Part shown: positions 1,009 through 12,493 of the stretch, in pieces
Layout: each line of letters opens with the position of its first letter
How positions within the stretch are numbered: position 1 is the first letter of the stretch
IMG/VR virus record: IMGVR_UViG_2690316086_000003
Span: 1 to 13,866 of that record
DNA length: 13,866 nucleotides
Reading direction: 5' to 3' (one strand)
Source: a virus
Taxonomy: Duplodnaviria > Heunggongvirae > Uroviricota > Caudoviricetes
Position numbers and translations under genes: made by a program
The notes under the pieces: model-generated
Databases searched by the model: none
Seen by the model: only the letters and a program-made list of their open reading frames with translations
Told to the model about the DNA's origin: nothing

Positions 1009-1575
1009 TATCGCGTCCTCAACAATGAATTTTGTGATGCAGTGCCTGGTGCCTCCAGGTGACGTTAACCAGTTAACAATTAACGCCGGATACAGAGAAT
1101 CCACCCATAACACTGTTTTTGGTTTTAACTGTTCCGCGTGCGCATAGCCGCATTCACCGCATCACAAAATTCACTTTAAAAAGGGCGGCAGAGCAGCCAC
1201 GGAGTAAAACTGATACCGCCAAACGTCACCAGAAAATTGATAACAGAGGGCGTTGCAGCGGGGTTGTCACTTAAGCGTATGGTCAACCTGACAACCCGGT
1301 GTCCTCAACGGGGAAGAAATAACCCCGCCATACTTACCGCCGCGCCATTTCGCGGAGTGCCACAACCGGAAGCGCACGGTCGACGAAAATTTAACGACAG
1401 GCTATCTATGAACCAGCAACCTCGCCGTGCGCTTTCGCGTTATGCTCTGACTTTTCAGAGAAATATCCTTTCAGTAAACTGTCAGTGCCGGATGTTCACC
1501 CGTGTCCGGCGCACGCACTCCACTTTACCCGTGGAGAACTCCTTAATTACCAACCTTAGCTTCGTTGGTTAGCTA

Positions 1576-5765: not shown

Positions 5766-6070
5766 AGGCTATAAACCGACTAACAACTAAATACTGAAGA
5801 TTTAAATCAGAAACGATTTTTATTAAATCCTTAACCGGAGGGATTCTGCACCCTCAGAACATCAGGAGGCCGTCTGAAAGGGCGGAACAGATAATGCTTA
5901 CGTTGAAACATTTTATCGACATACCAACATGGTTAGCCGTCATTGCTTTTGTTAAAATACACATCCACTTTTCTGTGCAATGTTTAACCACTGGTCATAT
6001 CAAATGGCATTCATGCGAACCATGATATAGAATCATGGCTTGAGAGAGTCGATGAAAGCGCAACTATGGT

Positions 6071-6649
6071 ATGAGAGACATTGATGTAAGAAAGGCTGTG
6101 CATGCCAAGATTCTGAGAGATCATCATAAAGATCCTGACACCCTAATCATTGATGAGTTTACGATGAATCTAGGGGCTAGCAGAGCTGATATAGCAGTGA
6201 TCAATGGGCTTATACATGGTTATGAGTTGAAGAGCAAGAGTGATAACTTGCTCAGATTACCAGCGCAGGTGCAACATTACTCATCAGTGATGGATAAAGT
6301 AACTTTGGTTGTCTCTGATTGCCATCTTTATGATGCTTTAAGCATAGTTCCATCATGGTGGGGGATAAAGCAAGTTACGCAAGGTGCACGGCAAGGTATC
6401 CATTTAAAAACAATTCGAACTAGCAAGTTGAATCCACAAGTGGACAAACTTTCCTTAACAATGCTTCTTTGGAAAGATGAATTGCTTTCCCTATTAAGTG
6501 ATGTAGGGGAGCTACAGAATTTGAAAAATAAACCTAAACGCGTCTTATGGTCAAAACTCGCCAATAGTATGGATGTTGGCGAGCTTCGTGAAGCTGTTCG
6601 AGTTAAACTTAAAGCCCGTAAAGAGTGGCGAGTTGCTCAACAACCTTAG
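6071..6649 (+). CDS. hypothetical protein with PD-(D/E)xK-like nuclease motif; recalled as 'sce7726-family-like'
   Basis: 192-aa ORF with AT-rich codon usage. Motif arrangement E29 (IIDEF), D40 (RADIAVI), E52-L-K54 (GYELKSK), which is the classic order for the restriction-endonuclease-like fold. Family assignment is from memory only. Confidence 0.7.
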   Translation: MRDIDVRKAVHAKILRDHHKDPDTLIIDEFTMNLGASRADIAVINGLIHGYELKSKSDNLLRLPAQVQHYSSVMDKVTLVVSDCHLYDALSIVPSWWGIKQVTQGARQGIHLKTIRTSKLNPQVDKLSLTMLLWKDELLSLLSDVGELQNLKNKPKRVLWSKLANSMDVGELREAVRVKLKARKEWRVAQQP

Positions 6650-7706
6650 TTATGTGATGGTTTTGCCCAATCCTACGCCATACCTCTGGGCTACCAAATT
6701 TATAGTTACCAGAGGGATTGGCTTTGTAGGCTTGATACTCGTTTGCATAATATTCTATGTCTCTATCTCCCGCACAGAATGTAGGCCCTGAATATTCTCG
6801 ATGAGCAAGAATATCCTCACTATGTTTACCATATTGTTCATAACCAAAGCGATTAGCTACTCTTCCTCGAAATACCCAAAAGTCATTATCTCCAGAGTAT
6901 CTGACGCTGGCAGATACGCTAGGGAATCGCGTCGAAAGCCTATTAAAGTCGGGGTGCTGTACTCCATAATCACTATAAATCACATTTCTGGCAAGTTCTT
7001 TTCTATTCATTAAACTCTGCCATAAAATCCACTCGATTCGAGGTTGAGAATATAGACCAACAGAAATATCACTGAGATCTGTAGGAAATGAACCCCCAGA
7101 AAGAATCACTTTTCTGTATTCATTGAGGTGCGCCAGATTGTTTATCAATCCCATTGCCAAAGTATATAGTTCGCCGGAATTAATTTTATCCTCGGTTAAC
7201 TCATCTCTTAAGTCAATAATTATATCAATATTTGATAAAGGAATTCCCAGATGATTAATGTAATGCGTTATTAATTGTGGGTTAACCAGATCTAACGTGG
7301 TTAATCTCAAGCATATTTCATTCTGCATTAATTCATCAATCGCTCTTTTATAGTTAGATGGGCGAGTTGGTGAACTGACAGGAATAACTCTTATCCCCAT
7401 ATCTCTAACTTGATTAACCGCATTTATTATAGGGTAATGATCTTCAGGAGAAATAAAATGCTCTTCAATTAATAATCCATCAATATAAACACCTTGCATA
7501 TCTGAGCAAGATTTTGAGACTTTCTTTCCGAACTCTATAAGAGTCTCGTTATAACTCTTTAAGGCAATACCTGAATCAGGGTCAATTGGCACTGGTTCAA
7601 TTTCGAGTAATGGCAAAATTTTTGATTTCTTTTCAATGGATAGCTGCGATAAAGCTGATAACTCAGAACGTTTCGCTTTCAGAATAGGAATATATGAAAT
7701 TGTCAT
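6609..7706 (-). CDS. hypothetical protein, recalled as 'beta protein / sce7725-family-like' (function unknown)
   Basis: 365-aa ORF, MTISYIPILKAKRSELSALSQLS..., AT-rich, with AAGG about 8 nt upstream of the ATG. Convergent with the 192-aa gene and overlapping its 3' end by 41 bp. The N-terminal Y-x-P-I-L-K-x-K motif matches my recollection of this family. Confidence 0.8.
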   Translation of the reverse strand: MTISYIPILKAKRSELSALSQLSIEKKSKILPLLEIEPVPIDPDSGIALKSYNETLIEFGKKVSKSCSDMQGVYIDGLLIEEHFISPEDHYPIINAVNQVRDMGIRVIPVSSPTRPSNYKRAIDELMQNEICLRLTTLDLVNPQLITHYINHLGIPLSNIDIIIDLRDELTEDKINSGELYTLAMGLINNLAHLNEYRKVILSGGSFPTDLSDISVGLYSQPRIEWILWQSLMNRKELARNVIYSDYGVQHPDFNRLSTRFPSVSASVRYSGDNDFWVFRGRVANRFGYEQYGKHSEDILAHREYSGPTFCAGDRDIEYYANEYQAYKANPSGNYKFGSPEVWRRIGQNHHITKVVEQLATLYGL

Positions 7707-8263
7707 GTTAATACCTTATACAGAATCAATTAACAATTAATGGTTCTTCGGACATTGAAATTTATATCGCAAAAATTGGCAAACTCTCCTCGACTACTCA
7801 CTTGTGGGTATCCTGGCGTAAAAGGAATGACTTGGCAATACCCGGTGTGATCATAAGTCATTGAAAATGATCATTTTTATCAGTCTTTCTTCCATGATGA
7901 ATGCTAATGCCATTTGATTTGTTGAGGTGAAAACTGTTAAAAATCAAAACGATGTAATTGAAATGAACGTTCGGTAGCATTCACGCTTTAAATGTTTCTT
8001 TTGTGCTGATTGGATGAATTTGGGTCACTTATGATGAGAGATGTTGCAGGAAAAGAAGTTGGCATTGATCTATTGGATAGTTAGAATTGCTGCGGGTGCT
8101 TGAGGCTATCTGCCTCAGGTATGAACACCAAAAGGCAGATAGAGAAAAGCCCCAGTTAACATTACGCGTCCGGCAAGACGCTTAACATTAATCTGAGGCC
8201 AATTTCATGCTTTGCACATGTAGGTTAGCCTCTTACGTGCCGAAAGGCAAGGAGAAGCAGGCT

Positions 8264-8419
8264 ATGAAGCAGCAAAAGGCGATGTTAATCGCCCTGATCG
8301 TCATCTGTTTAACCGTCATAGTGACGGCACTGGTAACGAGGAAAGACCTCTGCGAGGTACGAATCCGAACCGGCCAGACGGAGGTCGCTGTCTTCACAGC
8401 TTACGAACCTGAGGAGTAA
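8264..8419 (+). CDS. hokD: Hok/Gef-family small membrane toxin (51 aa)
   Basis: Product MKQQKAMLIALIVICLTVIVTALVTRKDLCEVRIRTGQTEVAVFTAYEPEE, with one transmembrane helix and the LCEVR signature. GGAG lies 9 nt upstream. The track ORF at 8207 is an in-frame upstream extension. The sequence matches HokD/RelF as I recall it. Confidence 0.8.
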   Translation: MKQQKAMLIALIVICLTVIVTALVTRKDLCEVRIRTGQTEVAVFTAYEPEE

Positions 8420-11416: not shown

Positions 11417-12493
11417 ATGCTTAATACTGTAAAAATATCCAGTTGTGAGTTAATCAACGCTGATTGCCTGGAATTTATCCAGACCTTACCGGAAAACTCT
11501 GTCGATCTGATAGTCACAGACCCGCCATACTTTAAAGTGAAGCCCGAGGGCTGGGATAACCAGTGGAAGGGCGACGATGATTACCTGAAGTGGCTGGACC
11601 AGTGTCTGGCGCAGTTCTGGCGGGTGCTGAAACCTGCCGGAAGTCTTTACCTGTTCTGTGGCCATCGCCTGGCATCTGACATTGAAATCATGATGCGTGA
11701 ACGCTTCAATGTGCTGAACCATATTATCTGGGCGAAGCCGTCCGGACGCTGGAACGGGTGCAACAAGGAAAGCCTGCGGGCGTATTTTCCGGCCACAGAA
11801 CGCATTCTGTTCGCGGAACATTATCAGGGGCCGTATCGTCCGAAAGATGATGGCGATGAGGCGAAGGGCAGGGCACTGAAACAGCATGTGATGGCCCCGC
11901 TGATTTCTTACTTTCGTGATGCGCGTGCTGCTCTTGGGATAACGGCAAAACAGATTGCAGATGCCACAGGAAAGAAAAACATGGTGTCGCACTGGTTCAG
12001 TGCCAGTCAGTGGCAGCTACCGAACGAAAGCGATTATCTGAAATTACAGTCGCTGTTTGCCCGGGTGGCAGAAGAGAAACATCAGCGGGGAGAACTGGAA
12101 AAGTCCCATTACCAACTGGTCAGCACATACAGTGAGCTGAACCGGCAGTACATGGAACTGCTGAGTGAATATAAAAATTTGCGGCGGTATTTCGGTGTGA
12201 CGGTGCAGGTGCCGTACACCGATGTGTGGACGCATAAACCGGTGCAGTACTATCCAGGGAAACATCCGTGCGAAAAACCGGCAGAAATGCTGCGGCAGAT
12301 AATCTGCGCGAGCAGTCGTCCGGGTGACCTGGTGGCGGATTTTTTCATGGGTTCTGGCTCAACCATAAAAGCAGCTATGGCGCTCGGGCGTCGTGCAACT
12401 GGTGTTGAACTGGAGGCAGAACGTTTTGCGCAGACCGTTAAGGAGATTAGTCACATCCTTACATGCTCAATTGATGACGGGAAGGATGGATAA
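11417..12493 (+). CDS. orphan DNA N6-adenine methyltransferase (beta-class, DPPY motif) with a central inserted domain
   Basis: 358-aa ORF. N-terminal motif IV ...VDLIVTDPPYF..., C-terminal motif I ...DLVADFFMGSGSTIKAAMALGRRATGVELE.... An insert of about 150 aa lies between them. No adjacent restriction endonuclease gene is recognisable. Confidence 0.85.
   Translation: MLNTVKISSCELINADCLEFIQTLPENSVDLIVTDPPYFKVKPEGWDNQWKGDDDYLKWLDQCLAQFWRVLKPAGSLYLFCGHRLASDIEIMMRERFNVLNHIIWAKPSGRWNGCNKESLRAYFPATERILFAEHYQGPYRPKDDGDEAKGRALKQHVMAPLISYFRDARAALGITAKQIADATGKKNMVSHWFSASQWQLPNESDYLKLQSLFARVAEEKHQRGELEKSHYQLVSTYSELNRQYMELLSEYKNLRRYFGVTVQVPYTDVWTHKPVQYYPGKHPCEKPAEMLRQIICASSRPGDLVADFFMGSGSTIKAAMALGRRATGVELEAERFAQTVKEISHILTCSIDDGKDG

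Follow-up and report, generated by a model that had tools for sequence, protein, structure and literature searches.

The question raised by this locus is what a 365-aa open reading frame (ORF) carried by a prophage encodes, and whether it forms a functional unit with the small gene that faces it. The stretch of DNA analysed (the window) is 13,866 nucleotides long, and an earlier note, made from its letters alone, had recorded at 6609-7706 a 'beta/sce7725-like' protein of unknown function, recognised by its N-terminus. The ORF listing of the window showed that these positions correspond exactly to a 365-aa ORF on the minus strand, the translation of which begins MTISYIPILKAKRSELSALS, as had been quoted; the plus-strand reading of the same segment is riddled with stops. 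A Shine-Dalgarno-like AAGG, read from the sequence, lies 7 nt 5' of the ATG (7717-7714).

A profile-HMM search assigned the protein to the beta family over its full length. It matches the Pfam model Beta_protein (PF14350) with 178.3 bits (E=3.8e-52), residues 5-356 aligning to positions 1-341 of the 342 in the profile; for scale, the gathering score of this model is 27 bits, and the beta protein of satellite phage P4, which is the prototype of the family, scores 191 bits. BLASTP aligned it with P4 beta over the full length at 23% identity (E=1e-8). The PADLOC models for PD-Lambda-2_C also cover the full length (PDLC03983, E=1.8e-41), and the P4-specific PADLOC 'beta' model matches the N-terminus only (residues 4-40, 2e-4). 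The family is large, with 4402 cluster representatives at 50% identity recovered by profile search (E<=1e-3). Because of the full-length PF14350 match and the size of this family, the ORF, judged by its sequence, is a real gene and not a chance ORF; it is referred to as beta hereafter. The second half of the proposed label did not survive. Against the NCBIfam model sce7725_fam (NF033831), beta scores 12.3 bits (E=0.1), over residues 5-39 only, against a curated cut-off of 60 bits, and it is therefore not a member of that family; an HMM search at E<=0.01 gave no sce7725_fam match for it. The same weak N-terminal match was found in 7 of 18 beta proteins, and what the two families share at their start is a Y-x-P-x-L-K-x-K-x-x-E motif. 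Since the match is confined to the N-terminus and recurs in this way, sce7725 is at most a remote relative.

The facing gene encodes the small nuclease-like partner of 192 aa that the earlier note had named. It matches the NCBIfam model sce7726_fam with 191 bits (E=1.7e-56; cut-off, 70 bits), is labelled PF26915 (Phage_P4_cII) in the protein database and shares 28% identity with P4 cII (E=2e-17), a protein that RefSeq names 'sce7726 family protein'; we refer to it as cII. The protein has a restriction-endonuclease-like alpha/beta core with a conserved D...(D/E)xK, which places it in the PD-(D/E)XK superfamily, and the motif residues E29/D40/E52-x-K54 are invariant. An extra helical domain is present at the C-terminus (residues ~126-181). 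A sequence-profile search against PDB chains gave no match for cII, and its best structural match is the MmcB-like protein SPO1766 (PDB 3dnx).

The two genes converge, beta on the minus strand and cII on the plus strand, with an overlap of 41 nt at their 3' ends. The earlier note was silent on the opposite strands, the convergence and the overlap; the pair is not a co-directional operon. We clustered beta proteins at 90% identity, which gave 28 lineages, and the pair was convergent with an overlap of 20-59 nt in 27 of them. The phyla that carry it are Pseudomonadota, Bacillota, Actinomycetota and Acidobacteriota, and the lone exception to the overlap is P4, in which the genes are separated by a 27-nt gap with a terminator. 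A genome-contig scan with an alignment of the closer beta relatives yielded nine genome loci (Samsonia, Cedecea, Xenorhabdus, Phytobacter, Rahnella, Photorhabdus, Aeromonas, a Bryobacteraceae MAG and the actinomycete Hamadaea), all of which carry the pair. The same layout was seen in a second E. coli variant located between Rz and Nu1 of lambdoid prophages, in an Acinetobacter prophage-like region, on a Paenibacillus chromosome, in two metagenomic lineages, on a Bacillus mycoides plasmid and in 49 further viral and metagenomic contigs. Of the 28 plasmid matches of beta, 19 overlap an annotated sce7726 gene, and the plasmid carriers include rhizobial, Rhodococcus and Bacillus plasmids. Thus, the expectation that the larger protein usually sits next to a small partner agrees with the gene-neighbourhood data: beta homologues are syntenic with the small family in every cII-type locus examined, and no other conserved neighbour was found within +/-3.5 kb of the pair. 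A second beta context also exists, in which a gene of ~430 aa of the XRE family lies directly upstream and co-directional and cII is lacking; these XRE-type loci correspond to PD-lambda-2.

Pairwise identities of beta and of cII are strongly correlated (r=0.94), which indicates that the two are inherited as a unit. Beta diverges faster; for example, the two E. coli variants share 29% identity in beta versus 53% in cII, and the values are 25% versus 48% for Acinetobacter and 21% versus 38% for Bacillus. In the overlapping lineages, the overlap lengths are all 2 mod 3. Because shifts of a stop codon alter the overlap in steps of 3 only, this constancy shows the overlapped arrangement to be ancestral and never lost. 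We considered the constant phase as a sign of selection or of antisense regulation and rejected it as such, as common descent explains it equally well. A terminator scan predicted no terminator-like site between beta and cII; its one weak site, no more than chance would give, falls within the beta gene. As the tails of the genes overlap, a terminator would not fit between them, and the two mRNAs must be partly complementary, each running antisense into the other gene; a coupling of beta and cII by antisense or transcriptional interference is plausible from this layout.

We then delimited the segment that carries the pair (Table 1). Homology of the flanks across thousands of E. coli genomes ends at ~5895 and resumes at ~8082, and the whole cassette segment between these points occurs in only 77-93 of 5426 E. 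coli genomes. Its GC content is 34-42%, versus ~50% in the flanks, and the same slot is filled by different cargo in other prophages. An E. coli O103 chromosome matches the window at 100% identity, and the window represents a Rac/Qin-type lambdoid prophage (racR, a ydaT-like gene, replication genes, hokD, DUF968, rusA and a Q-region); the beta-cII pair is cargo in a prophage of Shiga toxin-producing E. coli (STEC). The cassette sits between the replication genes and hokD, and its right edge abuts hok/sok, with the Rfam sok match at 8094-8269 just beyond it. Nucleotide homology to other Enterobacterales modules begins at the cII ATG and stops at the beta ATG, which argues that the mobile unit consists of the two ORFs alone.

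Table 1. Positions in the window of the beta-cII cassette and of the features within it.
Feature	Position	Strand	Basis
AT-rich cargo cassette (moron), 2.2 kb, approximate limits	5896..8081	.	flank homology breaks and GC
13-nt perfect inverted repeat AATGCCATTTGAT, left copy, 60 nt upstream of cII; overlaps the -35 of a promoter-like site (6004-6033)	5999..6011	-	repeat search
cII/sce7726-family gene, 192 aa, PD-(D/E)XK nuclease-like partner	6071..6649	+	ORF, family match
Antisense overlap of the beta and cII 3' ends, 41 nt; beta residues 353-365 opposite cII residues 180-192	6609..6649	.	coordinates
beta gene, 365 aa, Beta_protein family (PF14350), predicted TIM barrel	6609..7706	-	ORF, family match
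Upstream region of beta, ORF-free, AT-rich, presumed promoter and leader	7707..8081	-	no ORF >=60 aa, no gop-like ORF
13-nt inverted repeat, right copy; lies 200 nt upstream of beta and is oriented to that gene as the left copy is to cII	7906..7918	+	repeat search

No gop-like ORF and no other ORF of at least 60 aa was found in 7707-8206, the short ORFs upstream of beta look spurious, and no convincing sigma-70 or other consensus promoter was called in the region upstream of beta. In phage Tritos, an ImmA/IrrE gene lies near the corresponding region, without a link to any beta gene. In the window, the 13-nt inverted repeat exceeds chance significantly (0.04 matches expected; two copies in 0 of 200 shuffles), yet it is not conserved beyond near-identical E. 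coli copies, and we do not claim a functional role for it.

The location of the cassette bears on two alternatives to a defence function. It adjoins the replication and nin-type region of the prophage, as might be expected if the pair served the carrier phage itself, in lysogeny control, recombination or repair; the name cII, the annotations 'regulatory protein' and 'MmcB-like DNA repair protein' in some records and the structural match to 3dnx point in the same direction. We nevertheless regard such a phage-intrinsic regulatory or DNA-processing role as very unlikely, given that the cassette is rare among E. coli genomes and its flanks are widespread, that the pair occupies differing slots in different prophages and is found on the rhizobial, Rhodococcus and Bacillus plasmids as well, and that gop-beta-cII is described as non-essential in P4 (PMC9122126). 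The second alternative is a pure addiction or stabilisation module, in which cII would be a toxin and beta its antitoxin, or the reverse, and the pair would maintain the prophage or plasmid with no dedicated anti-phage role. The cassette does adjoin hok/sok, another addiction module, the pair does occur on large plasmids, and its tail-to-tail antisense overlap may recall RNA-controlled toxin systems. In P4, moreover, Gop and beta act as a toxin-antitoxin pair, Gop being toxic without beta (Ghisotti 1990, as relayed by Rousset 2022, PMC9122126). However, both characterised beta-containing systems give phage resistance (PMC9122126, PMC9519451), and beta is a large protein with an enzyme-like conserved pocket, unlike typical labile antitoxins. 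A role limited to addiction is thus unlikely in our judgement; addiction and defence are also not mutually exclusive.

Structure prediction, one of the checks that the earlier note had proposed, confidently modelled beta as a TIM barrel, an assignment that rests on a (beta/alpha)8-type alternation together with structural matches to TIM barrels. Fold searches returned generic TIM barrels only, with no specific structural relative, and the beta profile gave a single, insignificant match by sequence against the PDB (E=0.2). No metabolic enzyme family was matched, and we regard the idea of an ordinary metabolic TIM-barrel enzyme that lies in the prophage by chance as effectively excluded. In an alignment of sequences down to 21-27% identity, the polar residues E15, D76, R115, R134, D165, D246 and H351 are invariant, and K12, R223, R269 and R344 are invariant except in P4. 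The C-terminal ends of the strands are the usual catalytic face of TIM barrels, and most of the invariant residues of beta would lie at or just after these ends in the predicted strands, their placement following from the topology. The model therefore suggests an invariant charged pocket that may bind or turn over an anionic ligand.

A further alternative is a restriction-modification-like system, whereby beta would modify host DNA or the nucleotide pool as a TGT/DpdA-like TIM barrel, cII would cut unmodified incoming DNA, and the convergent layout would serve timing, as in many type II restriction-modification systems. The transglycosylase lead, which came from matches of beta to DpdA and Cap10, was rejected as non-specific by rank, Z and identity; for example, DpdA ranked 8 in a field of hundreds of generic TIM barrels whose Z was similar, and its identity was 11%. 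Genes for 7-deazaguanine synthesis and other partners were not found nearby. A DNA-modifying beta is also a poor fit to what its relatives do: P4 beta neutralises Gop, which is small and for which a membrane-spanning segment is predicted, and component C of PD-lambda-2 works together with an Xre-peptidase. We consider this reading improbable.

The family had been described as functionally uncharacterised. At the level of whole systems this is no longer so, as homologues belong to P4 gop-beta-cII (PMC9122126) and to PD-lambda-2 (PMC9519451); the literature found gives no mechanism for either system. Neither a two-gene beta-cII module nor a biochemical activity of beta or cII was described in any paper that our literature search retrieved, and for sce7726 the search returned genome annotations only. 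A defence paper that came up under 'beta family protein' concerns an unrelated 2TM-beta effector and was set aside.

On balance, the pair is probably an autonomous two-gene, gop-less relative of P4 gop-beta-cII, with cII as the effector and beta as a sensor or regulator; what we infer is that the pair acts in defence, that beta and cII divide the roles in this way and that antisense regulation links them. Superinfecting phages would be kept out by the cassette, through abortive infection or nuclease attack. The cII-type nuclease would be the effector, a likely role because its nuclease active site is conserved, and beta would sense infection through its conserved charged pocket and its faster-evolving surface and would restrain or license the nuclease, while the overlapping mRNAs would couple the expression of the two genes. 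The earlier note had suggested that beta could be the sensor or regulator of the nuclease-like protein, and, as far as comparison of sequences goes, this suggestion is consistent with published work and with the faster evolution of beta. It is favoured because beta is common to three architectures with different toxic partners, because it is needed for defence, and not for neutralisation, in PD-lambda-2 (PMC9519451), and because it evolves faster than cII and has an invariant charged pocket. Against the defence reading, the known toxin of P4 is Gop, which is missing in the window.

A bolder version can be offered only tentatively, as we think it rather less than likely. It holds that two-gene beta-cII is the ancestral, autonomous form of an immune module and that beta is a new TIM-barrel immune sensor or enzyme, which would gate cII, Gop (in P4) or the Xre-peptidase (in PD-lambda-2) by binding or converting a nucleic acid or a phosphorylated ligand. 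The phase-locked overlap would then serve as an obligatory antisense circuit controlling how much of each partner is made relative to the other.

The locus matters because two E. coli anti-phage systems that have been validated by experiment, gop-beta-cII and PD-lambda-2, each include a beta-family protein, and the pair moves the focus to a PD-(D/E)XK nuclease and to a TIM barrel whose charged pocket is invariant. As a compact, native STEC prophage cassette of 2.2 kb, it makes the mechanism directly testable, and the count of prophage-encoded immunity in pathogenic E. coli is too low if the cassette is active. Its ancient, constant-phase, tail-to-tail overlap also makes it well suited to a clean test of whether antisense coupling operates in a defence module.

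Among known systems, we first compared the cassette with gop-beta-cII ('gop_beta_cll' in DefenseFinder and PADLOC), which protects E. coli against lambda and P1 (Rousset 2022, PMC9122126). The trigger of its toxicity is orf184, a phage gene (Silas et al., bioRxiv 10.1101/2023.04.06.535777). In P4 (NC_001609), gop (247-648) and beta (651-1718) are on the plus strand, and a convergent cII (1746-2540) is on the minus strand. Both loci have beta and cII homologues that are adjacent and convergent, and both are cargo of an E. coli mobile element. They differ in several respects. The window lacks gop, the gene of the known toxin, and a tblastn search of the window with P4 Gop returned noise only (best E=0.33 over 7 aa). 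The cassette lies in a lambdoid prophage by hok/sok, whereas the P4 system lies in the P4 satellite hotspot, next to cos/int. cII is 192 aa in the window, without a C-terminal extension, and 264 aa in P4; the genes overlap by 41 nt in the window but are separated by the terminator-containing gap in P4; and the window proteins are only distantly related to the P4 pair. The literature found gives no dissection of the role of cII in P4 defence. Across the lineages, a co-directional ORF directly upstream of beta is missing in most, Gop is present in P4 only, and one metagenomic lineage has an ORF of 200-237 aa that abuts beta. From these comparisons, the conserved unit is beta plus cII, and Gop, to which the only known toxic activity belongs, looks like an add-on of the P4 lineage.

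PD-lambda-2 is a validated anti-phage system composed of a HigB-like A, an Xre-peptidase B and a beta-like C (Vassallo 2022, PMC9519451), in which B is toxic and is neutralised by A (PMC9519451). The component C models cover the window beta, as noted above; however, the XRE gene of PD-lambda-2 is co-directional and upstream and cII is absent, whereas the partner in the window is a convergent nuclease. No HigB-like or Xre-peptidase gene was found by the window beta in the upstream ORFs, in the RefSeq annotation of the identical locus or by PADLOC on the neighbours. The P4 beta model of PADLOC reaches the N-terminus only, and, on the PADLOC matches obtained, current defence finders would not recognise the cassette as a complete gop-beta-cII or PD-lambda-2 system. 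With the sce7725/sce7726 pair (NF033831/NF033832), it clearly shares the partner, but its beta falls outside sce7725_fam.

Unlike SPO1766 and other PD-(D/E)XK nucleases, cII is paired with beta and has an added C-terminal helical domain. Convergent type II restriction-modification pairs resemble the cassette by analogy only, as two facing genes of a selfish or defence module, one of which encodes a PD-(D/E)XK nuclease; beta, in contrast, is not a methyltransferase, has no SAM-binding motifs and, to our knowledge, has no modification activity. Taken together, the beta and cII families and their link to defence are already known, and what is added here is the minimal architecture, the overlap conserved across phyla and the two folds.

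The prophage slot that holds the beta-cII pair in the window, flanked by the replication genes on one side and hokD on the other, is a variable cargo site (5766-8206 of the window, compared with other prophages, H65-H71 and L073). In the other E. coli prophages, this slot holds DUF551, DUF4014 or DUF7167 genes, or a methyltransferase, and the cargo of phage Tritos at this site is a hypothetical gene of 445 aa. The right cassette boundary is directly abutted by a hok/sok type I toxin-antitoxin locus (8094-8419). Beta and cII are each preceded by one copy of a perfect inverted repeat, AATGCCATTTGAT, for which 0.04 matches are expected by chance; the longer match extends over 16 nt at 94%. The repeat is restricted to near-identical E. 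coli copies of the beta-cII cassette.

Elsewhere in the window, the DicF antisense sRNA adjoins dicB, as expected of a Qin/Rac-type prophage. The prophage DNA methyltransferase, beside which the RefSeq annotation shows no restriction gene, is probably either an orphan methylase or an anti-restriction one.

E. coli contigs L012-L014 carry a second beta/cII variant, located in a prophage slot other than that of the window pair and flanked by the lysis gene Rz and the terminase gene Nu1. Compared to the window pair, its cII is 53% and its beta 29% identical. In one viral contig (L053), two beta fragments lie on opposite strands on either side of an intact cII, probably because an inversion or rearrangement broke up the module. 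In one metagenomic lineage (L019/L020), a gene without a Pfam match stops 3 nt short of the start codon of beta and would encode 237 aa if the first in-frame start codon were used; this gene could represent a third, non-gop component.

Coordinates of features in the window and in the retrieved loci
Feature	Location	Strand	Evidence or remark
DicF antisense sRNA	window 1183-1234	-	Rfam, 75 bits
Inverted repeat, 13 nt	window 5999-6011, 7906-7918
sok	window 8094-8269		Rfam, 119 bits
hokD CDS	window 8264-8419
DNA methyltransferase, 358 aa	window 11417-12493	+	PADLOC MTase_II, 3e-160
Second variant, gene pair	L012 3134-3754, 3696-4763	+, -	overlap 59 nt
Split beta and intact cII	L053 4001-4699, 5958-6530, 6496-6897	+, +, -
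Gene upstream of beta, 200 aa	L019/L020 2395-2997	+
XRE-family gene, ~430 aa	L021 2207-3535
XRE-family gene, ~430 aa	L022 2185-3468

On roseobacter and Rhizobium plasmids (L021 and L022), beta is preceded by an XRE-family gene and cII is absent; the L021 locus adjoins a HipA toxin gene and a cluster of AAA/UvrD-like genes. This combination of an XRE gene and beta without cII is the architecture of the PD-lambda-2 type of anti-phage system.
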